Assembly: GCA_963767735.1 (NCBI GenBank)
Contig: CAVYES010000005.1
Span: forward strand, 1 to 64,000
Source: Candidatus Bathyarchaeota archaeon
GTDB taxonomy: Archaea; Thermoproteota; Bathyarchaeia; Bathyarchaeales; Bathycorpusculaceae
Direction of reading: 5' to 3'
DNA: 64,000 bases
Shown: one piece after another, positions 26,251 to 39,545 of the stretch
How the letters are laid out: every line of letters begins with the position of its first letter
Numbering within the stretch: the first letter of the stretch is position 1
The notes under the pieces: generated by a model
Seen by the model: the letters and a program-made list of their open reading frames with translations, nothing else
The model's database searches: none
Told to the model about the DNA's origin: nothing
Position numbers and translations under genes: made by a program

Positions 26251-27162
26251 ATGATGACTACTGTAACTTTAAAAATATCCAGAGATAGTTTCCGTATGGC
26301 AAAAACCTCAGATAATGCTGCTGATGATCCTCATTTCTTTGCATCTAACGTGCATACATGCTCTATTTCTGATTCTGTGGCTCTCAGAATTCATTCGGAT
26401 ACAAAACCGCTAAACTTGAAAATAGCAAACTTGCAGAAAGGTATGATTTTTATGTTTAATGGGGCTGAGGTAGTTGGGGAAGGAACAGGATTTGGAGTAC
26501 CTATTGGAAAATACTCTAATGAAGTATTTTTTTCAGGCTCATCATTCCTCCAAGTTCAAAAGCAGGATAATTTTGTCATTATTCGCAAAGAGTTTTTAAT
26601 GGATCTGATAGAACGGAGCAAATTCCGAAATCTCAAACTTGAAAACGTGAAGTTGCGTGGGATAATGGACTCCTTTTCTTTGCTTTCCCAGAAACATAAG
26701 CGTCTTGCCCAATTCATTCTTCTAGCAAAAGGGTTACTTTTTAAGTTTGGAGTAAAATCGACTTTTGTTAGAACAATGCCAAAAGGTAAAGTTATTGTCA
26801 CTTATACCGTAGATCGAAACCGAATTTTAGTGAAATTGAGCTTTAATGAGTTGGACCGGACTAATCTTCAGAAGGTCTTTATGTTAAACGAGCAAGGAGC
26901 GCATTTCTTCAGGAAATACTCTGATTCAGAAGGGCTTAACTTGTTCGATGAGGAAATAGGCGTTTGGGATGATGTGATGGCCCAATCGGCAAAAATAGCG
27001 GATTCACAAGACAGAATTGGCTTCAGTCTAAAGAATGTTGAAGGAACTGTGTTGCGGCGAGGAAGGGAAGTGATCAAAGGTCATCTAGATTGGATTGGTC
27101 TAGATTATGAACTTAATCCCGAAGATGACCAGTTCGAGTATGAAATTGAAATTTTCGGGTGA
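26251..27162 (+). CDS. Hypothetical protein coupled to a radical SAM gene
   Basis: 303-aa ORF with GTGA overlap to the next gene. Confidence 0.6.
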   Translation: MMTTVTLKISRDSFRMAKTSDNAADDPHFFASNVHTCSISDSVALRIHSDTKPLNLKIANLQKGMIFMFNGAEVVGEGTGFGVPIGKYSNEVFFSGSSFLQVQKQDNFVIIRKEFLMDLIERSKFRNLKLENVKLRGIMDSFSLLSQKHKRLAQFILLAKGLLFKFGVKSTFVRTMPKGKVIVTYTVDRNRILVKLSFNELDRTNLQKVFMLNEQGAHFFRKYSDSEGLNLFDEEIGVWDDVMAQSAKIADSQDRIGFSLKNVEGTVLRRGREVIKGHLDWIGLDYELNPEDDQFEYEIEIFG

Positions 27163-28533
27163 CCTTGATGAAAACCGTGACTCTGGTCTATCCGTACTTC
27201 AAACCTCGTGTTGACACATCAATCTTCAGATTTCCGCCTTTAGGCTTGGGGTATATCGCAGCATATCTAAAACAACAGGGTATTTCTGTTGGAATTGTAG
27301 ATTGCACTTTTCTCGACCAGAAACAGGCTCTCAAAAAAATTGTCGACTCGAAACCACAGATAATTGGAATCCAGTCAATGTATTCGATGAGAAACAAATC
27401 TCTTGAACTAGCCCGCCTACTAAGAGACCATTGTGAATTACTTGTTGCGGGAGGCGCGCTTCCTACGACGCAACCTGAGATGTTTCTCGGGGACTTCGAT
27501 GTTGCTGTTGTTGGAGAAGGAGAACTAACGATGCTTGAGCTCGTCAATCAGTTCGTAAATGGTGGTGATTTGTCTCAAGTAAAAGGTATAGCGTATAAAG
27601 ATAAAGGCACTGGTCAAGTTAAGCGGACCTCTCCGCGGGGGTTGGTAGAGGACTTAGATAGGTTGCCTCCCCCTTCAAGAGATTTATTTGATAATTATTC
27701 TTACAAAAAGTATTACTTTAGAAGATTTGGCTACAAAACTTCAGCTATTATGACTTCCAGGGGTTGTCCCTTTGCATGTGATTTCTGTAGCAGACCGGTC
27801 TTTGGTGATGAATTTAGATCAAGATCAGCATCGAAGGTAGCTGATGAGATAGAAGAGGTAATTTCTTTGGGCTATAATAGAATATGGTTTGCTGATGATT
27901 GTTTTACCTTGAATCGCAAGCGGCTTATTGAAGTTTGTGATGAAATCATCAAACGCGGATTGAAAATTGACTGGGAATGCCTATCAAGGGTTGACACTTT
28001 GGATTCGGATATAGCTGACAAAATGAAACAAGCCGGATGCGTAAGGATGTTTTTTGGAATGGAATCCGGAAATGATTCAATCCTTAAAATCATGAATAAG
28101 CAGGTAACAACAAAGCAAGCATATATTGCCACCCAATTATGCAAGAAAAAAGGCATCAGAGCGGGGAGCATTCTTTATCCCGGGGTACCCTGGCGAAAAC
28201 GACAAAACCATCCTAGATACCGTAAAGTTCGCGTCTTCGCTTCCATTAGATTATCTTTCTTTTACGCTACCTTATCCTATTCCGGGAACACCCTTATTTG
28301 AAAGACTAAGTGGCGAACTGTTGTCCGAGGAATGGGAAGAACCCAAGAATATTCAGATGATAAAGCATAAGTTGCTTTTCGATTCACAGGTAAGTGAGTT
28401 CAAGTTGAAGTTTGCAGTTATTAAGGGTATGATCCAGTTTTACAGTCGAAAATATATGGGTGAAAAAGGCTACGCGCTTATCGGCGGACCAATTGAAGCG
28501 GTAACGGACGCAGTCTATGGACTAATAACATAA
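27159..28533 (+). pseudogene. B12-binding radical SAM protein, split by a +1 G in GGGG at 28163-28166 (possible sequencing error)
   Basis: PPLGLGYIAAYL, GEGE, SRGCPFACDFC and FGMESG; continues as GAFFI.GYPGE in 28126..28533. Confidence 0.8.
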
Positions 28534-28678: not shown

Positions 28679-28821
28679 GAAGCAGTGCTTATCTCAAGAA
28701 TATTGAATATTCCGCCGCCGGTTCCGTTGCCGCAGATTCCTGAAGCTGGAAAACAGCCAAGCTCTAAGCCTGAAGGAAGAGACTACAGCGCGTAGCTTAA
28801 ACCGCATATAGGAAAAAAGCT
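28679..28821 (+). repeat. 143-bp inverted duplicate of 39091-39233 (3' end and downstream sequence of gene 39117..39545)
   Basis: Read base by base as an exact reverse complement. Confidence 0.9.
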
Positions 28822-29198
28822 GAAGTTTCATCTAACGATTCTTGTATTGTCACCTTTTGCTTGGCTTTGTCGAATGTGTGGTACCATTCTTATCAATTAT
28901 TGACAGACCAAAAACATTTGAAGTCATCGAGAAAAAGTAACATCTCAACAAAAGATAATTGTTGCCGCGATTCTGCAAGAAATTCTGTAATATGAGTGCG
29001 ATTACCCGTGGGGCGGCAAAATTTTCGTTTTATCGGTTCGCAACAAATCTCGTTTACTGTTCTTTCCTGCTTTCTTGAGAGAGATTATTTCGATGGCTTT
29101 TTGCGCTGGAAAAAAGAGGGAGCGCATCTTAGAAGTCCCTATTTTTCTCAGCATATCTTTCAGTTTTTTTAGCGCGCCGCCCACAAAAACAGTTTTTG

Positions 29199-30551: not shown

Positions 30552-32010
30552 CTATAGATATTCGCGTCTTTTTCTCAAGGCTGCCGTAGCCAATCTTAAC
30601 TCGACAGGGTAACGAAAATACCTGTGTCTCCACCTGTATTTGGCAATTTTGTTTAACAAGCCGTACCCTAGTCTGTAAGAAAGTCGGCGCTCACCAACTC
30701 GTGTGCGAGGATAAAACGCGTAAATCGAAACGGTTGAAACGTCCTGAAGCTTATCGACATATTGCTTAGAATGCCATGGCGGCCTGAAATGAAAAACCTC
30801 AGCTTTCCCCCACTCTTCAAAAGATTGAGGAAGTTTAAATTCTGGACCCAACGAATCCAAGATGGGGCTGGGAAAAGGCGTGAACAAAAAGATCCCGTAG
30901 TGTTGGGTCTTCGGGTTAACTTCACATCCTGTCCATTAAGTCACATGTCTTCATGAGATCATCTTCGGTTTCCGTGGGAAGCCCACTTAGCCAAGACACA
31001 AACGGTTCAATAGAAGGAGCCCACTTTCTCAGGTTTTCTACAGAACTAATCATTTGCTCCGTCGTGATATCCTTATTTATGAGTGAAAGCAACCGTTCAG
31101 ATCCAGTTTCTCCTCCAAAATCAATCTCGGTACAACCTGATTTCGCCAGCAGCTCAATGAAACCCTGGTGGTATTCTGACATATAATCAAATCTGCAGTT
31201 CGCTCGCCAACTTACTTTGATTTTTCGATTTAATATTTCCTGACAAATGTCCATTACTCTTCTTTGATCAACGAAGAAATTATCGTCAATTGGATCAATA
31301 ATTCTGATGTGCGGAAATTTTTCAAGAACATATTCTATTTCATCAACGACTCGACGGGCACTTTTTCCACGCCAAGTCTGCCTGTTATAAACGATATTAT
31401 AACAAAATCCACACTTATGAGGACAACCCCTGCTCGTCTGAATATGAAACCGGCCCGACTTTAACGTAGGATATTTGTCCAAAGACAGCAACTCAAAAGG
31501 AAGCTCAATAGGAATCTCGTCCAAGTCCATTAGTTCACGGTTAGGTGTACTTCTGATTGTTCCAGCCGACTTGAAAGTAATCCCTTTGATCCCATCAAGT
31601 GGCTCGCCTGCCGAAAATTTGTCAGCCAACTCCAAAAGTGTTCGTTCTCCTTCGCCCCTCACTACAATGTCAACAAACTCGCTTGCCACAGTCTGTTCCG
31701 GCAAAAGAGTAGGATGCACCCCGCCCCACACAAGAGGAATCGAAGAATCTAAAATCCTAACCCTCCGCGCAAACTCTAGTCCATATCGTATTTGAGACCC
31801 ATGAATCGTGCTTATGCCGACAAAAAGCGGCTTTCCAATTTCAAAATCGGTAAAACTTTCTAATCGCATGTCTAGAATTTTAACTGAATACCCGCCTTTA
31901 ATCAGAAAACTCGCCAGATGCAACAAAGAAAGTGGAACCTGCGGGTTAGGAGAATTGTGCTTTCCTGGAAAGACTAATAACACTTCCAGTGTCTTGTCTT
32001 TTCTTAACAA
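30552..32010 (-). pseudogene. B12-binding radical SAM protein, split near 30922 by an apparent 2-nt deletion
   Basis: WGGVHPT and SRGCPHKCGFC; the tail (FTPFPSP...RYPVEL, 30552..30887) aligns with paralog 37587.. Confidence 0.8.
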
Positions 32011-32262
32011 AAGTCTCTCTTCAGTTCAGGCTTTTCTAAATGCAAAATCCAGTTGTGACTTCTTAAGCTTATGTGACTGCCGCATGACAGCAACAAAAAC
32101 TGAAATACGTTAAGTTTCACTCGGATTAGAAAAGCACTTCAATATATTATATTTATTTTTTGAAAGATTACTTTTGGCCATATACGAACTCCAAACCAAA
32201 AAGCAACAAAACAATGATCTGAAAGGAACTTTTAGCCATTCGACACAGCAAAAAGTAGGAAA

Positions 32263-32277
32263 GGTTAAAATTTAATC
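32263..32277 (+). repeat. Left target-site duplication (15 bp)
   Basis: GGTTAAAATTTAATC, identical to 37558-37572. Confidence 0.85.
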
Positions 32278-32296
32278 CCCAAACCCAAACCCAAAC
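32278..32296 (+). repeat. Left terminal inverted repeat (CCCAAA)3C
   Basis: CCCAAACCCAAACCCAAAC is the reverse complement of 37539-37557. Confidence 0.85.
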
Positions 32297-32488
32297 GACG
32301 ACGGAAACGACGAAAAAACCTGAAAAAAACGGCTAAACGATGAAAAAACTACGAAACGACGGTTTATTTTTATAATTATTGTTGTTTACACTATAATTTT
32401 TAATATTATTTACAATTTTATCTTAAATGTTGTGTAAAGTTGAATGTTAAAGATTAATTAAATTCAGTATTAACATTTTATAATTTAA

Positions 32489-32731
32489 TTATTGTTTGAC
32501 CTTCACAGAAGATAAAGCACCATAAACACTACAAGTAACACCAATCAACGAAAAAACAAGTCCAATTATAGCAACAATAGAATATTCAACTATTGTATTA
32601 TAAATACCAATCCAATAAGCAGTTTTAGGATAAGGGTCACCAAGCAACTGTAAATCATGAAACCCAATCATCAACATAACCAAACCTAACACCGTAAGAA
32701 CAATGCCAATAATAATGATTCCAATTTTCAT
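32489..32731 (-). CDS. Small two-TM membrane protein (element cargo)
   Basis: 80 aa with two hydrophobic helices. Confidence 0.55.
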   Translation of the reverse strand: MKIGIIIIGIVLTVLGLVMLMIGFHDLQLLGDPYPKTAYWIGIYNTIVEYSIVAIIGLVFSLIGVTCSVYGALSSVKVKQ

Positions 32732-32870
32732 TTTTTTACCATCTTAGGACATTTTTTTCAGCACTACATTACAATTATTAATAACGATAAAATCCAAATT
32801 AATATTTTATGAATATGAAATTAATATTAACTTAGATTCACTAATGATTACATTAAAAATTGGGAAAAGA

Positions 32871-33905
32871 TTAAATTGTTGGAAGTCTCGGAATCCAACT
32901 TGGTTTTTCATGCCTAAGATACTTCGCTAAAAGTAACGCTTCTTCACTAATTAATGTCTCAAACTCTTGTCTTTTCCCGACTCTGATTCTTGGTATTTCC
33001 ACATAAGAATTAAACAAACTATCTAATTCAACCATGAAACTTTTAGTTTCATCATCGTTAAGATATTCTCTTTTCCCAATTTTTCCACGTGACATTAACT
33101 CACTTTTTGTTATGAAATCCTTTTTGCTCAATTCCTTACAGAATCCGATAATAAAATCATCAATGATGTATCTGTAAATCTCCATGAAATCACATATTAA
33201 ACTTGGCTTACCGAATTGTTCACTATGCAAAAAACCAAGATAAGGCTCTAATTTCGCATTAACAAGTGCTTTATGAACTTTCCAGTTAAGCATCTCATAA
33301 CCTAAATTGAAAAGATTATTTATTCCATCATAAGCCTTGAAAGTTCTTCTACATTCAGGTCTTATCCTTTCAGGTATTAAATCAAACACTTGTTTAAAAT
33401 AAAATTCTGCACAATGAGATTCATAAGTGGAAATAATAACTCTAACTTTAAGTAAATTGTCACTATCAATATTCTTAATCCTTGAAATCATGGCAATATC
33501 AAACGGTTTTAAACTGTATTTGCTCAATACCTTATTTTGACCTTCTATTTTACTTAAAACAATTATTTTTGCAATCTCTAAAGCTCTACCATCTTTTAAC
33601 GCTTCATACTGTTGTATCCTTGTATCTACATGGTCATCATTATCTAAACTTCTAAGCATCGCAACAGGTCTCCCTTTTTGCGTAATAATCAAAACATCAA
33701 TATCCCAAAAACCTAAAGATGCTAAAGCACCTGTAGAAACACAATTACCACTTTTTAGTACAACTTCACCAATTTCTTTTTCAAATAATGGATAACGTTT
33801 AACATTTCCAGTTCTATCTTTAACTATAAAACAGCCTTTTTCCATGCCTAAATAACTGCCTTGTTTATCAAGCGTTATTTTCAGAGTTTTAGAGCCTTTA
33901 ACCAT
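32871..33905 (-). CDS. cas1: Stand-alone Cas1 endonuclease/integrase (casposase-like, no C-terminal HTH)
   Basis: N-terminal beta domain (GSYLGMEKG, VSTGAL, GRP), R..QY, catalytic E162 (YES), NLGY, PYLGFLH227 and SL.CDFME242. Confidence 0.93.
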   Translation of the reverse strand: MVKGSKTLKITLDKQGSYLGMEKGCFIVKDRTGNVKRYPLFEKEIGEVVLKSGNCVSTGALASLGFWDIDVLIITQKGRPVAMLRSLDNDDHVDTRIQQYEALKDGRALEIAKIIVLSKIEGQNKVLSKYSLKPFDIAMISRIKNIDSDNLLKVRVIISTYESHCAEFYFKQVFDLIPERIRPECRRTFKAYDGINNLFNLGYEMLNWKVHKALVNAKLEPYLGFLHSEQFGKPSLICDFMEIYRYIIDDFIIGFCKELSKKDFITKSELMSRGKIGKREYLNDDETKSFMVELDSLFNSYVEIPRIRVGKRQEFETLISEEALLLAKYLRHEKPSWIPRLPTI

Positions 33906-34016
33906 TTTTAAACCTTCATTTCAAACTATTAATAATTATTAATAATAATTAATTAATGTTAAGGTAAAAAATATAAACATTTCACTCATTATTAATAAGT
34001 TTTAGTGACTGTTAAC

Positions 34017-34151
34017 ATGACAAAAAAACTTATTTTAGATATTGATAATGAAACTTGGAAAGAGGTTTTAAAGTACAAAATTGATAACGATTTAAAGAAC
34101 AATAATGAAACAGTAATTTTACTGATAAAAAAAGCATTATCTCTAAAATAA
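34017..34151 (+). CDS. Small RHH-like regulator divergent from cas1 (44 aa, not in ORF track)
   Basis: MTKKLILDIDNETWKEVLKYKIDNDLKNNNETVILLIKKALSLK. Confidence 0.6.
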   Translation: MTKKLILDIDNETWKEVLKYKIDNDLKNNNETVILLIKKALSLK

Positions 34152-34658
34152 ACTTGAATCTTCACAAAATAATTATTAGAAAAAAAGTGGAGGAAAGTAA
34201 TTTAGATTTTACTCTAAAACTACTTTTTACCTATGTATTTGACTTTGATTATTAGTGCTAATATTCCCATGCCTATGAAACATAAAGGCAATAATCCCCA
34301 AATAGTTATTACCGTTGCGTTCCAACCGCATATACAAACTCTTTATGTAAAAGTTTTTTGTATCGGTAGCATAGAAAATAGCGAACCCTATGATTCTGCA
34401 TAATTATCTAAAAATTTAGGTAACTATTCAGCAGCAAGCACTAATATGACAAAATCAACCAATCCCCTCACGGTCGATAAGACCATGATTTAGGTCGATG
34501 ATATCTGTCATGTTTTTTGTGTAACCCTCCCTAAGTCAACTTAGGGCTTGATTAGATATAAAAGATTTGCTATATTTTTGGTGTTTGATTCAAAATAAAC
34601 TTTTAAATTACTTTTTAGATAAATTTTTACTTGTTTTTTATCTTTAATATAATTATAT

Positions 34659-34820
34659 TTATTCTTTTATAGGCTCAAGAATTAACGTAAATTTTTGTTT
34701 TCCATCTAAAACAGCTTTCAATTCTTCCAAATTAGCAAGATAACGTTCATGCTTAACCATTACAGTTACTTTTTTACTATCTTTAGTTAAACTCAAATAT
34801 CCACAATCTTTCCAATTCAT
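34659..34820 (-). CDS. Small hypothetical protein (53 aa, not in ORF track)
   Basis: MNWKDCGYLSLTKDSKKVTVMVKHERYLANLEELKAVLDGKQKFTLILEPIKE; ATGA overlap with the upstream ORF and GAGGTGA SD. Confidence 0.55.
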   Translation of the reverse strand: MNWKDCGYLSLTKDSKKVTVMVKHERYLANLEELKAVLDGKQKFTLILEPIKE

Positions 34821-35503
34821 TGGCATTCAATCACCTCACTAACAGCTTTTACATTAGAATCAACAGATTTCTTAACAGAATCCTTAAGCGAATTCTTAAC
34901 AATATTCAAAATAATTCTTCTTGTTTCAAGTAATTCTTTTATTTGGTTGTTTTGACTACCATAACGAAAAACAATTTTGGGCGAAGGTTTATCAATTTTA
35001 GGGCTAAACCTTAATGTTGAGCTTTCCTTAATACACTGCATTAAAACCCATTTTTGTAAATCTATACTACTGCTTTCAAGTGCAATCCAATTTATTATAT
35101 GAACATTTTTAGTCCAGCTAACAGGTCTATCAAAAGCAACAAGATAATTCTTTTCAAAATATCTGTAACTAACTTTTCCTTTTTTCCCTTTTTCTTTAGC
35201 AATATGTTCTTTTCTACTTGATTCAAAAATAATAAATCCATTCAGATTAAACCAATTTAATGCTCGAAAAGCATAATATCTCACTTTATCAAGAGGCATC
35301 TTATCAAAATCAATTTGAACTATATTTTTACTCCAATTCCCAATAATTACAGATAAAATATCATCAGAAAAATCATTACCTAAAACACGTTTTGCAACTT
35401 GATATAATTCTTTTTCAGTGCCGAACGTTTGAATCCTTTTCTGTTTGCCATTAACAGAACCGTAAAAAGCAACTTGAACTTTTAGCTGTTTATTCTCGGT
35501 CGT
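34817..35503 (-). CDS. Putative AEP/primase-like protein; frame open 68 codons beyond the 35299 ATG
   Basis: The extension contains VQIDFD (hDxD); downstream motifs ESS...NYLVAFD and STLRFSPK; fold assignment is inference. Confidence 0.45.
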   Translation of the reverse strand, partial: TTENKQLKVQVAFYGSVNGKQKRIQTFGTEKELYQVAKRVLGNDFSDDILSVIIGNWSKNIVQIDFDKMPLDKVRYYAFRALNWFNLNGFIIFESSRKEHIAKEKGKKGKVSYRYFEKNYLVAFDRPVSWTKNVHIINWIALESSSIDLQKWVLMQCIKESSTLRFSPKIDKPSPKIVFRYGSQNNQIKELLETRRIILNIVKNSLKDSVKKSVDSNVKAVSEVIECQ

Positions 35504-35949
35504 TTATCCCACTCTTCTTTTGAAAGATATTTATCTGGATTAGAAAGTAACTTGCTTGCATCTATAGTTAAAAATTGAGATTTAGGTGAATAACCGCTTT
35601 TTGTTTTACCAAAATCAAATATTTTTTCTCTTATTACTTTATGTAAAGTTTTACCATCTATTGAAAATATATTAATTCTACTCGCATGACCGTTAACTAA
35701 TCCGCTAAATGAAACTACTTTTTCTCTCGGATGATAATATCTTCTATATTTTTTAGGTGTATATTTACTAACATTGGCTTGTGCAGGTCTATTTCTAAAT
35801 TCTCGTGTATAGTTAAGTATTATTTGTCTTCTTAATCCAATATGTTCGCTTCTAAGCTCTTTTTGAATCTGATTAGCACTATAACCTCTTGCATTAAGCT
35901 CTCTTATTCTATTAACTTGTTTAGATGAAACTCCAGATTTACGACTCAA
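35482..35949 (-). CDS. Basic HTH-like hypothetical protein
   Basis: IRELNARGYSANQIQKEL resembles an HTH; C-terminal domain is similar to the hidden N-terminus of the next ORF. Confidence 0.6.
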   Translation of the reverse strand: MSRKSGVSSKQVNRIRELNARGYSANQIQKELRSEHIGLRRQIILNYTREFRNRPAQANVSKYTPKKYRRYYHPREKVVSFSGLVNGHASRINIFSIDGKTLHKVIREKIFDFGKTKSGYSPKSQFLTIDASKLLSNPDKYLSKEEWDKRPRINS

Positions 35950-36374
35950 AAAGTTTCACCTTCTAAATTTAACCTTTTTTTCTCTTCTTCCGTTAATGGA
36001 GCTTTACGCTCAGATTCATCTAATCTTAACTGTAACTTTTTTTCTCTATCTATTTTATTCTCATAATTCTTAATGATTTTATGAAGTTGTGATAAATAAT
36101 AAGGAAAACTTTTAGATATTGTTATAATTTGAGTTTTATAATCAACAGTTATTAAACCTAAATTTTCAACATGACTTATTATTTCTGTTGTTTGGTTTTG
36201 GTGAGGAGCTTTAGGCATACCGCCCTCAGTGATAAACGCATTGTTAAAATCATTTATAGTTTTATTTTTACATGATTTAAGCATAAAATCCATAATTTTT
36301 AGGTTTTTAAGAAGTTTTTGTTTTGCCCAATATTCTTCTTGACTTTCAATCGGTTTTATACTTATATCTGTCAT
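35946..36374 (-). CDS. Hypothetical protein, possible winged helix
   Basis: ISHVENLGLITVD; overlapping start/stop with neighbours. Confidence 0.55.
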   Translation of the reverse strand: MTDISIKPIESQEEYWAKQKLLKNLKIMDFMLKSCKNKTINDFNNAFITEGGMPKAPHQNQTTEIISHVENLGLITVDYKTQIITISKSFPYYLSQLHKIIKNYENKIDREKKLQLRLDESERKAPLTEEEKKRLNLEGETF

Positions 36375-36526
36375 TTATACCGCTTAACCTTCTTTTTCCA
36401 GTTAAAATGAAATTCTCTTAAACTTGTTTTTTTATGTGAAGCTCTGGGTAAAAGTACACGTTCTTTCCAAAATTCTATTTTTACATCTAAAACGTTACCA
36501 TGACAGTCAACATGTAGTTTAGACAT
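36371..36526 (-). CDS. Small basic hypothetical protein (51 aa, not in ORF track)
   Basis: MSKLHVDCHGNVLDVKIEFWKERVLLPRASHKKTSLREFHFNWKKKVKRYK; TAATG and ATGA overlaps on either side. Confidence 0.55.
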   Translation of the reverse strand: MSKLHVDCHGNVLDVKIEFWKERVLLPRASHKKTSLREFHFNWKKKVKRYK

Positions 36527-36945
36527 TATTTTTCACCTTTAGAGCTTTCAGGGCTTTTTTTTATCTGATTAATCCAATTAGTTTTTAATTTTTCATTTTT
36601 CAACATACTTATTTTTTCAATTAATTCTGAATCTGATAATTTTTCATAATGATTTGACTTAATAAAATCAGTTAAATCTAAAGTAAAATCTTGCTCTTTT
36701 TCTATTTTCGGTTGTATTTGCGGTTTTTCTTCTTTAACTAAATTATCTGTAATTCCATTTTTTCTTTCGAATTTCAACATTTCTTTTGCAGTATTTAGAT
36801 AATCTACTCTTGTATCTTGGCAGAAACACATAGCAAGTTCAGTTAATACATCATTTTCAGATTCTCCATCTTTTAATTTTTTCATTACGGCTCTTATATT
36901 TACATCTCTTATTGTTGAGCCTGACCTTTTCTTAAATTCACTCAA
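36526..36945 (-). CDS. Hypothetical protein (element cargo)
   Basis: 139-aa ORF in the coupled operon. Confidence 0.55.
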   Translation of the reverse strand: MSEFKKRSGSTIRDVNIRAVMKKLKDGESENDVLTELAMCFCQDTRVDYLNTAKEMLKFERKNGITDNLVKEEKPQIQPKIEKEQDFTLDLTDFIKSNHYEKLSDSELIEKISMLKNEKLKTNWINQIKKSPESSKGEK

Positions 36946-36948
36946 AAT

Positions 36949-37131
36949 TTAAACCTCTTCTCTAATTTCTTTTTGACCTATATTTTGACTTGTATTTTTT
37001 TCTGTAATTGTAAAAGTATTTCCACAATTTCTACATCTAAAATTATTAAAATAAAATCTAAAATATGTTTGAGTTGAATTGAATTTTGGACATCTGTGAT
37101 TTTTTACTTTTGTTTTTTGCATAGACATCAA
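36949..37131 (-). CDS. Small zinc-ribbon-like protein
   Basis: CPKF...FRCRNCGNTF; the first CxxC is degenerate. Confidence 0.5.
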   Translation of the reverse strand: MMSMQKTKVKNHRCPKFNSTQTYFRFYFNNFRCRNCGNTFTITEKNTSQNIGQKEIREEV

Positions 37132-37320
37132 ACAAACAGTATGTTTGTATCAAATTTAAGTTCTTCGATTTAGTTTTTTATCAATTTTGAGTTAATAATC
37201 CAACCCATATAGCTTGAATGGATTAATAAATTTCTACCTCAAAAACGTTTCAAAATTTACAATATATTTAGGGCTAACTCAAACTTCAGAGCTAACTCCT
37301 AACTATTCTTTATTCAGCGA

Positions 37321-37460
37321 GCTAACTAACGAACGAGCGAGCTAACTAACGAACGAGCGAGCTAACTAACGAACGAGCGAGCTAACTAACGAACGAGCGA
37401 GCTAACTAACGAACGAGCGAGCTAACTAACGAACGAGCGAGCTAACTAACGAACGAGCGA
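37321..37460 (+). repeat. Seven perfect tandem copies of a 20-bp unit (no spacers)
   Basis: (GCTAACTAACGAACGAGCGA)7, with degenerate GCTAACT copies at ~37273 and ~37291. Confidence 0.95.
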
Positions 37461-37538
37461 GCGAGCGAATGCGTGGGAGAGAGGGATAAGGAGAGCTTGA
37501 GTTTGGGTTTGTGAGTAGGCGTAGGCGTGTGTGAGGAA

Positions 37539-37557
37539 GTTTGGGTTTGGGTTTGGG
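37539..37557 (+). repeat. Right terminal inverted repeat G(TTTGGG)3
   Basis: GTTTGGGTTTGGGTTTGGG. Confidence 0.85.
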
Positions 37558-37572
37558 GGTTAAAATTTAATC
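37558..37572 (+). repeat. Right target-site duplication (15 bp)
   Basis: GGTTAAAATTTAATC. Confidence 0.85.
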
Positions 37573-37586
37573 CTAATTAATTAGTA

Positions 37587-39218
37587 GTGAGGGTCTTTTT
37601 AGGAATGTTCAGTTCCCAGACAGGCATATCACATTTCTGCAACATATATTCAAGCAATAACAAGAAAGACGTTTTGCTTGTTTTCCCAGGAAAGTTCAAA
37701 GCGCCTGACCCGCTGTTTCCTCTTTCGCTTTTGTATTTAGCCGCTTCACTGCAGGAAGAAGGTTTTACGGTTCGCGTTCTTGATATGAGAATTGAAGATT
37801 ATCGCCACTTTGAAATTGGCAACCCCCTATTTGTGGGCATAAGCTGTATTACGGGTTTACAAATCAATTATGCCTTAGAATTTGCCCGTTATGTCAGAAT
37901 ACACGCTTCTTCGTCGCCCATTGTTTGGGGAGGAGTTCATCCGACATTGTTGCCTGAGCAAACAGCAAGCAATGACTATGTTGATATCGTTGTCCGAGGG
38001 GGAGGAGAATTGATAATCAAAGATATAGCAAACGCGCTTGCGTTAAATGAATCGTTAGATACTGTTGCTGGAATAACTTATAATTTAAACGGCTCAATCA
38101 AAAATAACCCAGATGGTAACATAAAAGATTTAGATGATCAACCAATAGCTTTGCCCTATGACCTGCTCCAAATGGATAAGTACCCATCGGTAAAATCAGG
38201 CCGGTTCCATATACAAACAAGCCGAGGATGCCCTCACAGATGTGGTTTCTGCTACAACATATATTTTAACAAGAACAAATGGAGAGCCAAAAGCTCCAAA
38301 CGCGTGGTCGACGAAATTGAGTACATATTGAAAAAATTTCCCCACGTTAAAATAATAGATCCAATGGATGATAACTTTTTTGTTGACAAAAAACGTGTTG
38401 AAGAAATATGCCGAGAAATTTTAGGTCGCAAACTTGTAATTCAATGGCGCGCTAATTGCCGATTCGATTACCTATCTACTTATGATAAAGATTTTCTAGA
38501 GCTTTTAGAGAAAGCTGGATGTGTTGAGTTGAATTTTGGGGGTGAGTCAGGTTCAGAGCGTTTGCAACAGCTTATATGCAAAGACGTTACAGCAAATCAA
38601 ATGTTGCAATCGGTTGCGAATCTCCGTCGCTGGGCACCTTCCATTGAGCCCTATGTCACATGGATGATTGGTCTCCCAGGCGAAACTGACGACGATTTGA
38701 ATCAAACTTTTGATTTAATGGACAAGATGTGTGAAGTAAATCCTAAGACGCAGCATTTAGAAATATTTGTTTACACTCCATTTCCAAGTCCATTTATGAA
38801 TTTTTTGCCAGCGAAGTATAAACCACCTCAATCGCTTGAAGAATGGGGCAGCATCAATGTCTTTCATTTCGATCCACCTTGGCATAGCAAAAAGCAAGTG
38901 GAAAAGTTGCATTCGATTTCAGCTGTTATACGTTATGGGTTTTACCCTCAATCAAGAATAAAAGAACGGGATGTCACTTACAAAATAGCTCATGACGTTA
39001 TGAATCGTATTGCGAAGTACAGATGGAAACGCAGGTACTTCGGCTTCCCAATTGAACTAAAAATCGCTGATTCCTTATCTATGAAATTCAAGCTTTTTTC
39101 CTATATGCGGTTTAAGCTACGCGCTGTAGTCTCTTCCTTCAGGCTTAGAGCTTGGCTGTTTTCCAGCTTCAGGAATCTGCGGCAACGGAACCGGCGGCGG
39201 AATATTCAATATTCTTGA
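37587..39218 (+). CDS. B12-binding radical SAM protein; C-terminal ~40 aa read antisense into the neighbouring gene
   Basis: PLSLLYLAA, WGGVHPT, SRGCPHRCGFC and GGESGS; close paralog of 30552..32010. Confidence 0.85.
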   Translation: MRVFLGMFSSQTGISHFCNIYSSNNKKDVLLVFPGKFKAPDPLFPLSLLYLAASLQEEGFTVRVLDMRIEDYRHFEIGNPLFVGISCITGLQINYALEFARYVRIHASSSPIVWGGVHPTLLPEQTASNDYVDIVVRGGGELIIKDIANALALNESLDTVAGITYNLNGSIKNNPDGNIKDLDDQPIALPYDLLQMDKYPSVKSGRFHIQTSRGCPHRCGFCYNIYFNKNKWRAKSSKRVVDEIEYILKKFPHVKIIDPMDDNFFVDKKRVEEICREILGRKLVIQWRANCRFDYLSTYDKDFLELLEKAGCVELNFGGESGSERLQQLICKDVTANQMLQSVANLRRWAPSIEPYVTWMIGLPGETDDDLNQTFDLMDKMCEVNPKTQHLEIFVYTPFPSPFMNFLPAKYKPPQSLEEWGSINVFHFDPPWHSKKQVEKLHSISAVIRYGFYPQSRIKERDVTYKIAHDVMNRIAKYRWKRRYFGFPIELKIADSLSMKFKLFSYMRFKLRAVVSSFRLRAWLFSSFRNLRQRNRRRNIQYS

Positions 39219-39545
39219 GATAAGCACTGCTTCAATGAATACGACGTTGGATACTGATTGAATAATTATTTGTGCCGGTGGCTTTTTTTGTTCATAGTCT
39301 TTGAGAGCTTTTTCAATTTCGTTTTTCTCGCCATTAACATAGGCGTTTCCTTTTATACTCATTTGAGCGATGGAAGGATTAAACGTGATTGACAGGACAA
39401 ATGGGACCTCCAAAGATTCATCCTGTTTCTTTTCCATACCAACAACGTTAATGTTAGTGTTTATTTGAATTGGGGGGATTGGCTTTCTTATATCCCAAAA
39501 GCGTTCAGCAGTAATGCTGGTAATTATGACGTTAACTCTGAGCAT
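39117..39545 (-). CDS. Conserved archaeal hypothetical protein
   Basis: Follows rps27ae; ends with a PPPVPLP motif. Confidence 0.65.
   Translation of the reverse strand: MLRVNVIITSITAERFWDIRKPIPPIQINTNINVVGMEKKQDESLEVPFVLSITFNPSIAQMSIKGNAYVNGEKNEIEKALKDYEQKKPPAQIIIQSVSNVVFIEAVLISRILNIPPPVPLPQIPEAGKQPSSKPEGRDYSA

Follow-up and report, generated by a model that had tools for sequence, protein, structure and literature searches.

What kind of mobile element is built around a stand-alone Cas1, with no family B DNA polymerase (PolB), cas2 or CRISPR array, and how would such an element find its target? The question is raised by a stretch of 64,000 nucleotides from a soil archaeon of the class Bathyarchaeia (assembly GCA_963767735.1, contig CAVYES010000005.1, positions 1 to 64,000; hereafter the window), in which a cas1 gene lies inside an insert bounded by terminal inverted repeats (TIRs) and a target-site duplication (TSD). 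Judged from its sequence, the insert is probably a transposon of the casposon type that integrates by means of Cas1. It groups as a casposon-like member of the proposed family 5, a clade found widely in Bathyarchaeia, and not of families 1–4. It is recently inserted and mobile. Three findings had been named in the initial annotation as refuting such a reading (a Cas1 nested in a CRISPR-associated clade, homologues lacking TIR and TSD, and relatives showing no empty site), and none of them was obtained. The family itself has been published, and the window element is not a lone case. What appears to be new is the mechanism that can be read from the sequences, namely a palindromic 13-bp target that renews itself, tips of low information content, arrays of cassettes, and a primase-like gene in the place of PolB.

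Boundaries and recent insertion

The Cas1 element is real and, when read with a 13-bp TSD and 20-bp TIRs, spans 5,282 bp (32277–37558). The initial annotation had described 15-bp direct repeats (32263–32277 and 37558–37572) and perfect 19-bp inverted repeats, and both are present: the 15-nt copies form part of an exact direct repeat of 16 nt, and the perfect inverted repeats of 19 nt lie just inside the direct repeats. Its preferred reading, a 15-bp TSD by analogy with Aciduliprofundum boonei, gives way to the parse that it had offered as an alternative (13-bp TSD, 20-bp TIR), as comparison of 30 related elements gives a family TSD of 13 bp, the length reported for a family 1 casposase (PMC8464041). 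The boundaries are as follows (L numbers denote compared cas1 loci).

32264..32276, no strand: left 13-bp TSD copy, a near-palindrome (sequence and family comparison)
32277..32296, + strand: left 20-bp TIR with a G-free (CCCAAA)n tip, a tip type common to L006, L009, L042, L047, L053 and L116
37539..37558, − strand: right 20-bp TIR, 3′ end GGGG (repeat analysis)
37559..37571, no strand: right 13-bp TSD copy, in the probable promoter region of the downstream B12-radical SAM gene

Throughout the 3.04-Mb genome, the 15-mer is present only twice and the 19-mer only at the two element ends; per pair of positions, chance alone would produce a 13-bp direct repeat at a rough rate of 2e-8 and a 20-bp inverted repeat at one of 1.5e-12. 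As a null, the TSD-plus-TIR scan was run on 150 random 20-kb windows and gave five positives, comprising three hits to the host genome's second Cas1 element, one to a 153-bp inverted repeat pair, and one unexplained. The element has a G+C content of 0.29, against ~0.43 for the contigs, and sits between two divergent B12-radical SAM genes.

The claim of a recent insertion, and the search for an empty site that had been proposed with it, are both borne out. Among the contigs of four public runs (from 16 listed), a near-identical strain is represented in run X2 by a 669-nt contig that joins 32262 directly to 37558 and leaves a single copy of the target; its flanks show no difference over 438 nt on the left and one over 231 nt on the right. 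Occupied junctions were found in X4 (left) and X1 (right), and one of these occupied runs may be the source sample. The closest relative, L116, has a Cas1 of 93% identity, the same CCCCAAACCC tips and most genes in common, and occupies a different site; the base outside the 13-mer differs between its two TSD copies. In other species of the genus no empty site was found: there the two flanking sequences do not adjoin each other, and of the palindrome only one half exists. Five of nine distinct same-genus loci keep, at the target position, a left half resembling GAAA-GATTAAAA, and none of the nine has the palindromic right half. We read the left half-site, which precedes the radical SAM gene, as a TATA-like motif, with the site resembling a BRE/TATA region. 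Strict promoter targeting was considered and rejected as a general rule, as the genes flanking 29 elements point both toward and away from them. As a separate observation, the stretch 32186–32262 just left of the TSD, single-copy in the genome, is matched by an X2 contig of depth ~85 with different flanks.

Cas1, the probable integrase, and its clade

Cas1 is encoded at the following position.

32871..33905, − strand: Cas1 casposase, 344 aa, family 5 clade, E162/H227/D239/E242, no C-terminal helix-turn-helix (HTH) (Pfam, NCBIfam, tree, alignment)

The protein matches PF01867 (E=1.9e-45), and among the NCBIfam models only the general TIGR00287 exceeds its cut-off, with no subtype model doing so. 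Since its Pfam match comprises Cas1 only and its length is 344 aa against 431 aa for PDB chain 6OPM, the Methanosarcina mazei casposase (PMC8464041; match E=9e-13), it lacks an HTH extension; Cas1 lengths in the family range from 317 to 384 aa. E162, H227 and D239 are invariant in 37/37 family sequences, and E242 is E in 33 and D in four. Alignment and Pfam thus agree with the initial annotation, which had described a 344-aa Cas1 with E162/H227/E242 and no C-terminal HTH as the only recognisable recombinase. All four catalytic residues are present, which sets the protein apart from Cas1-solo group 1 with its incomplete active site; it is likewise distinguished from CRISPR-associated Cas1s by having no cas genes or array nearby and by reaching no subtype model cut-off.

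The proposed Cas1 tree was built as a quick IQ-TREE of 93 proteins (SH-aLRT support only, midpoint root, family 2–4 and Asgard sequences not included), and it places the window Cas1 apart from other Cas1s and from thaumarchaeal casposases. A single clade (SH-aLRT 99) unites 36 family sequences and six library representatives. It is separate from seven Cas1s that adjoin protein-primed PolB (SH-aLRT 100) and were taken as family 1 type; these came from the archaeal family of G439, were chosen by nearness to PolB rather than as named records, and share 25–29% identity with the window Cas1, in a separate clade. The family clade also lies apart from 32 other Cas1s of the phylum, not all of them necessarily CRISPR-linked. 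Beside these, loci L195–L201 and L212 hold a separate Cas1 clade in one other family of the phylum (f44), sometimes with two per genome.

The initial annotation had suggested a distinct family, but this clade was already proposed in 2022 as family 5 casposases. Salgado et al. (PMC9755687) based the proposal on six hot-spring Cas1-solo genes placed near subtype I-A, without HTH, with PolB in one of the six, TIRs in some, and members more than 50% identical; they called the family non-self-replicative and its neighbours ‘hypothetical proteins’. Our assignment is indirect, by way of L057, with the published family 5 sequences standing outside the tree. The Cas1 of L057 is 52.6% identical to the window Cas1 and falls in the same clade (SH-aLRT 99); the published Cas1_1269 matches it over its full length, at about four-fifths identity by eye, L057 having been located via a short motif. 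Because Cas1_1269 closely matches this typical clade member, the window element is assigned to family 5.

Close Cas1 relatives (E<=1e-40) occur in 44 of 401 Bathyarchaeia genomes. In a sample of 401 genomes of the phylum, close matches outside the class are only partial (G422, G421, G465), and the other matches listed do not exceed 35% identity. A protein search gave 1,882 matches at E<=1e-20. Many Cas1 fragments are present in the class. No close relative was found in the viral contigs of IMG/VR, and plasmids yielded only Cas1 relatives of ~25% identity.

A 13-bp duplication of a palindromic target

Checking homologous cas1 loci for TIRs and TSDs, as had been suggested, revealed both. A first scan, for direct repeats abutting inverted repeats, gave 22 of 42 Cas1 loci with TIR and TSD, accepted by inspection; a second, 13-bp scan was run on 49 loci no shorter than 4.5 kb and was positive in 16, among which two duplicate elements found earlier and L153 belongs to another type. 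The set used for TSD comparison comprised 30 elements, 21 from the first scan (L054 was dropped for two mismatches) and nine from the second. At each of 13 positions the two TSD copies are identical in 29–30 of the 30, and one base outside they agree in only 17/30 and 15/30; seven of the 30 have no extension of the repeat on either side. Since the copies agree at 13 positions and only about half the time beyond them, the family TSD, as deduced from these alignments, is exactly 13 bp across the 30 relatives.

The target is an AT-rich palindrome, [G]RTTAAAWTTTAAY[C], whose 13-mer RTTAAAWTTTAAY is symmetric, with 4.5 of 6 positions pairing against 2.5 in shuffled sequences. Elements start with C in 45 of 60 ends, and so mostly end with G. 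With G-13-C as the preferred target, and with C and G as the usual first and last bases of an element, the repeat comes to look 15 bp long. The tips are simple repeats of the types (CCCAAA)n, (CCAA)n, (CT)n, (CCT)n, (TTCC)n, (CA)n or An; G is absent from tip positions 2–10 in all 60 ends, a property that the scans did not demand. TIRs aligning from the first base measure 12 to 292 bp. Targets are mostly intergenic, and targeting of tRNA genes was rejected, no tRNA adjoining the ends in 35 loci scanned. The idea that the termini are unstructured was likewise dropped: the ends of the window element fold worse than shuffles (z +2.0 to +3.4), but the 60 family ends do not (mean z −0.63 vs −0.59 for internal controls).

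Tandem arrays and cassettes without Cas1

Each junction rebuilds the target, and sites are therefore reused, so that elements and Cas1-less cassettes stack in tandem arrays. Neither these arrays nor the palindromic nature of the target had been noted in the initial annotation. Double-tip junctions number 29 in 913 kb of family loci, some of them redundant, and the host genome has three among 283 motif sites, against 0.23 expected. In L006 and L007, one locus-specific 13-mer is found at three junctions each. Units without Cas1, 0.4–2.8 kb long and often holding a single gene, lie between target sites, as at L041:11558–14029, and the host genome (contigs C) has such units at C4:132991–135776, C5:459080–462973 and C6:327331–332044. 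The cargo of relatives includes methylases, a ThaI-type nuclease, and Fic, TIR-domain and ClpP-like genes.

Several further observations concern these arrays. The host genome holds a second family 5 element at C5:450598–459092 (L001:4599–13093), 8.47 kb long with perfect TIRs of 285 bp, which encodes a Cas1 50% identical to that of the window, an MCM-like ATPase, and ClpP-like and DUF2299 cargo; it is followed in tandem by a Cas1-less unit, up to C5:462973, with a 290-aa open reading frame (ORF) for a putative insertion sequence (IS) transposase. The same target together with C-rich tips recurs at C4:132991–135788, C5:298179, C6:327331–332068, C2:182919–183812 and C4:449852, either as units without Cas1 or as single ends. 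Some 260 bp of sequence upstream of C4:132991 and C5:298179 is shared at 80% identity, and two homologous intergenic regions were thus both targeted. A 7.5-kb block at L041:6548–14041 consists of a Cas1 element and then three single-gene cassettes, with one identical 13-mer at its outer bounds and other 13-mers at the inner junctions, an arrangement which suggests that the block moved as a composite unit. Directly before the 5-kb element of L116, three copies of the 13-bp target stand 12 and 16 bp apart (L116:2182–2248), resembling a miniature repeat-spacer array; deletion remnants would explain them equally well. Short-spacer arrays were rejected as a family trait, L116 being the only clear case in 1.3 Mb, and other close target pairs (L073, L159) look unrelated or ambiguous.

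Gene content and putative replication genes

The remaining features of the window element are listed below.

32489..32731, − strand: 80-aa hydrophobic ORF (no Pfam match over cut-off, no PHROG, no tblastn match in compared loci)
34017..34151, + strand: 44-aa small repressor-like protein, divergent from cas1 (phrog_4738 ‘transcriptional repressor’, E=5.9e-5; 93% identical in L116)
34659..34826, − strand: 55-aa conserved small ORF (tblastn matches in 6 loci, 50–89% identity)
34817..35512, − strand: AEP (primase-polymerase)-like gene (DxD kept; motif II His absent in the sub-lineage; stop at codon 3, 35506–35504)
35482..35949, − strand: 155-aa basic protein (protein A) with an N-terminal HTH and a conserved beta-beta-alpha domain (only HTH fold matches, Z up to 5.7)
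35946..36374, − strand: 142-aa ORF (common to L116 only; weak phrog_2232 match, E=0.0075)
36371..36526, − strand: 51-aa ORF (no homologues)
36526..36945, − strand: 139-aa ORF conserved in part of the family (cluster of 8 elements; tblastn matches in 8 loci)
36949..37131, − strand: 60-aa zinc-ribbon-like ORF (sub-threshold Pfam zinc-ribbon matches only; 87% identical in L116)
37316..37462, no strand: subterminal tandem repeat, 20-bp unit × 7.3 (repeat analysis)

Cas1 is the only ORF of the element to reach a Pfam cut-off. Apart from cas1, the longest open frame inside the element has only 228 codons, which leaves no room for PolB, and the element contains no cas2 or CRISPR array; ORF lengths and Pfam thus confirm the absence of all three that had been reported. 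The genome has three Cas1 genes, namely the window copy, C5:452157–453185 (50% identical) and a CRISPR-type gene on contig C10 (23% identical to the window Cas1), beside which lie the genome's only cas2 and only CRISPR array. The description of the element as minimal does not hold, as it carries a conserved AEP-like gene and several genes common to relatives. By its sequence, the 44-aa protein is a probable regulator and the 80-aa ORF probably encodes a membrane protein, an element-specific cargo. The subterminal tandem repeat is a possible iteron-like binding array; L116 has a related but shorter sequence near the matching end, and such repeats, present in only ~10/36 elements, are not a family trait.

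Gene content was compared across 36 delimited elements of 2.9–13.5 kb, comprising the TSD set of 30 together with L054, L070, L041, L138, L141 and L175 (L005, having no TSD, was excluded). With profiles built from seven protein-primed PolBs and one host-type PolB, PolB was found in 0/36, and a Pfam search of 138 ORFs, selected by length from the 237 in the first set, detected none. An AEP-like gene occurs in 24/36 elements (three of these matches being weak, at 17–18 bits) and an MCM-like gene in 15/36; 13 elements have only the former, four only the latter, 11 both and eight neither, so that 28 have one or both. The product of 34817..35512 appears AEP-like on several lines of evidence, none decisive alone: PF24387 (AEP-like) is matched by 22 of 84 members of the alignment, an ESM Atlas neighbour scores 0.94, and the fold matches of its model (pLDDT 90.8) are led by AEPs. 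The top fold matches are 2atz (Z 8.2, root-mean-square deviation (rmsd) 4.3, 137 residues aligned) and RepB′ 3h20 (Z 7.6, rmsd 3.5, 135 aligned), with all Foldseek E-values above 0.001. In the alignment, DxD is invariant and the motif II His is kept in 64/84, being absent in the window copy. Codon 3 of the window gene is a stop and a sense codon in L116; because of this stop, the window gene is probably broken.

The gene for protein A lies directly upstream of the AEP-like gene in 30 of 41 profile matches. The beta-beta-alpha domain at the C-terminus of protein A is similar to an N-terminal extension carried by the window AEP-like protein (E=3.6e-5), and in fold alignments this extension, in the window sub-lineage, forms part of the AEP match. 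Protein A was considered as a partner of the AEP-like protein, an idea that was not retained, and also as a capsid protein, which the fold searches, including a viral fold search, do not support.

Proposed mechanism and its alternatives

The sequences suggest the following course of events. A Cas1 oligomer, without Cas2, would hold a linear element by both ends, where the 3′ strands finish in C-free simple repeats of G, T and A, mostly with a terminal G. The oligomer would recognise the symmetric, AT-rich [G]RTTAAAWTTTAAY[C] and join the 3′-OH ends to opposite strands 13 bp apart, and gap filling would yield the 13-bp TSD; the target, its symmetry and the TSD length come from the family comparison, and the chemistry is modelled on family 1 and 2 casposases. 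With a C at the start and a G at the end, as in most elements, both junctions rebuild G-13-C, and reuse of the site gives the observed arrays, which have one locus-specific 13-mer at every junction. Cassettes of 0.4–2.8 kb that lack Cas1 and have similar tips would be mobilised in trans, since the ends demand little sequence. In the weakest step of the scheme, the AEP-like protein, the MCM-like AAA+ ATPase or both would replace PolB, probably priming or unwinding for host polymerases to give a free copy. Since its Cas1 and ends are intact and its AEP-like gene has a nonsense codon, the window copy can probably still integrate and may need help in copying itself.

A number of findings weigh against this scheme. 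The empty site is a single contig of depth 3.7 from one run, and the contigs of the four runs contain no excised, linear or circular form of the element. About half of the homologous loci have no detected TIR and TSD, many of them being short or cut by contig ends, and in L005, which has 92-bp inverted repeats, no TSD was found, Cas1 is broken, and a tyrosine integrase is present. As to replication, no third acidic residue is invariant in the AEP-like family and the motif II His is missing from 20/84 members, which makes its activity doubtful; the MCM assignment is based on sequence motifs characteristic of MCM ATPases together with weak PDB matches (best E=0.0033). Nor is PolB lacking from the clade without exception: it adjoins the Cas1 of L153 (57% identical and nested in the clade), a PolB-like ORF lies near that of L247 (a sister lineage, 33%), and a host-type PolB directly follows cas1 in L049, where no ends were found. 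L153:1–5397 is itself a whole contig of 5.4 kb with perfect TIRs of at least 70 bp at both ends, unlike those of the family, and encodes Cas1, PolB and a 66-aa hydrophobic protein; it is possibly a free linear or virus-like form.

Three other explanations have to be set against a Cas1-driven transposon. In one, the 13–15-bp palindrome is the attachment site of a host Xer-type or other tyrosine recombinase, acting as in integrons, and Cas1 is a passenger. Such a recombinase would account for a palindromic, AT-rich target reused in arrays of Cas1-less cassettes, tyrosine recombinase elements also make tandem arrays (PMC6563490), and L005 carries a phage integrase; but inverted repeats of 14–292 bp begin right at the TSD edge, and the 13-mer differs between loci, with exact copies inside any one locus, which is what a staggered cut would give. 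The Cas1 catalytic residues are also kept in 37/37, and Pfam found no recombinase in the scanned ORFs of TSD-bounded elements, so that we regard this explanation as quite unlikely. The presence of Cas1 in all elements is not independent evidence on this point, because the elements were found through Cas1.

The second explanation shares the integration step with a family 5 transposon and views the elements as integrated small autonomous replicons or viruses, AEP/MCM-driven or protein-primed, with Cas1 as their integrase and the window copy as provirus-like. PHROGs on 21 proteins and the viral fold search of protein A revealed no capsid or packaging gene, IMG/VR no close Cas1 relative, and none of 57 host spacers matches the family loci examined; eight of 36 elements also lack both AEP-like and MCM-like genes. 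These results make a replicon or virus unlikely, even with the AEP-like and MCM-like genes, the subterminal 20-bp array, the TIR-bounded 5.4-kb contig L153 with its Cas1, PolB and 66-aa hydrophobic protein, and the ESM Atlas neighbours of the AEP-like protein, often viral in a few records, on its side. Hardly credible, and largely refuted, is the view that the element is by now inert, a classical casposon in decay or a stray cas1 of CRISPR origin, after the loss of its PolB or cas partners. The broken AEP-like gene of the window, the PolB-bearing relatives and the many Cas1 fragments in the class would fit decay. Against decay stand the perfect ends of the element, its two identical copies of the TSD, the unoccupied site of a near-identical strain and the 93%-identical relative at another site, together with the absence of PolB from all 36 delimited elements and a clade apart from the other Cas1s of the tree (SH-aLRT 99).

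Surroundings of the element

No Rfam match was found in 31500–38500. A pair of 153-bp inverted repeats (28679–28831 and 39081–39233), 98% identical and present in only these two copies in the genome, encloses both divergent radical SAM genes and the element, and possibly marks an invertible or inverted-duplication segment. Both radical SAM genes seem split in two overlapping frames (30552–32010, − strand, 362+111 aa; 27159–28533, + strand, 380+135 aa), perhaps through a frameshift or an assembly error. Elsewhere in the host genome, C7:184250–187500 has a G+C content of 18%, far under the rest.

Significance

It has long been asked how the repeats of CRISPR came from casposons, and two candidates for their source are the target site and the TIR; solo-TIRs have been argued to be the source (PMC4779613). 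The window element brings to this question a Cas2-free, HTH-free Cas1 of CRISPR size with a natural palindromic target that every insertion restores and that is used again to stack unrelated inserts, and its ends, target and empty site are defined to the base. A broader proposal, which we put forward tentatively and with more doubt than confidence, is that family 5 Cas1 acts as a stand-alone integrase building repeat-insert arrays: it would duplicate a palindromic 13-bp repeat and accept almost any DNA with a short C-free 3′ tip, from 13-kb elements to single-gene cassettes and, in L116 only, pieces of 12 and 16 bp. If this is true, a stand-alone array-building Cas1 would be a living intermediate between casposons and CRISPR adaptation, and Bathyarchaeia would possess an integron-like cassette system run by Cas1 and paired with a minimal primase instead of PolB. 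For family 5 itself, the data supply a host lineage, a rule for its targets and evidence that it moved recently, and they suggest a route by which restriction-modification, TIR-domain and other cargo genes may be mobilised in Bathyarchaeia. As a tool for DNA insertion, an integrase that makes loose demands on donor ends and has a symmetric target of 13 bp could also be useful.

Comparison with known systems

The window element has a catalytically complete Cas1 as its only integrase together with TIRs and a TSD, as casposons do, and differs from the superfamily in lacking PolB. With family 5 (PMC9755687) it shares the Cas1 clade, the missing C-terminal HTH, the retained catalytic residues, the TIRs and a PolB that is mostly absent. 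The main text of that paper contains neither ‘TSD’ nor ‘Bathyarch’, and its available passages hold no target motif, empty site, arrays or AEP/MCM genes. The literature found has nothing on the target, TSD, cassette arrays, replication genes, host range or mobility of family 5, and neither a later family 5 paper nor one on Bathyarchaeia casposons was found, in a search that left subscription journals mostly outside; arrays of Cas1-less cassettes at a palindrome were not found in the literature searched, and the available passages of PMC8813620 mention neither Cas1 nor casposons.

Stand-alone Cas1 has also been proposed as the transposase of repeat-flanked elements in Asgard archaea (aCas1, via PMC10691335 and PMC8730458). 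Compared by description only, those of PMC10691335 are Asgard-linked and TnpB-associated; Pfam found no TnpB in 138 ORFs of our family. Repeated insertion at a single site, duplicating a short palindromic repeat, is a feature shared with spacer acquisition by CRISPR Cas1–Cas2 (PMC4046053), unlike which the inserts here are 0.4–13 kb with defined tips, no Cas2 is involved, the repeat is 13 bp, and no leader polarity is shown.

Among classical casposons, families 2 and 4 (Methanosarcina and Aciduliprofundum; PMC4779613, PMC9939771) are alike in TIR plus TSD and in sequence-specific tandem integration with a shared TSD, and tandem casposons with a shared TSD were thus already known (PMC4779613, PMC6563490). 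They differ in having PolB, TSDs of ~14 bp and tRNA or intergenic targets, and family 2 in its C-terminal HTH; the window Cas1 has the Cas1 domain only, and its element neither HNH nor PolB. Family 1 casposons (Nitrosopumilus; PMC4046053, PMC8464041, PMC6563490) have a protein-primed PolB and a non-palindromic leader-plus-TSD target, often in ef-2, whereas the window element has no PolB and its Cas1 falls outside the thaumarchaeal casposase clade. The likenesses to family 1 are a ~345-aa HTH-less casposase, a 13-bp TSD, a loose requirement for TIR sequence and tandem reuse of the site, and the HTH-less family 1 casposase of PMC8464041, with 347 aa, a 13-bp TSD and tolerance of TIR sequence in vitro, is the best mechanistic model for the window Cas1.

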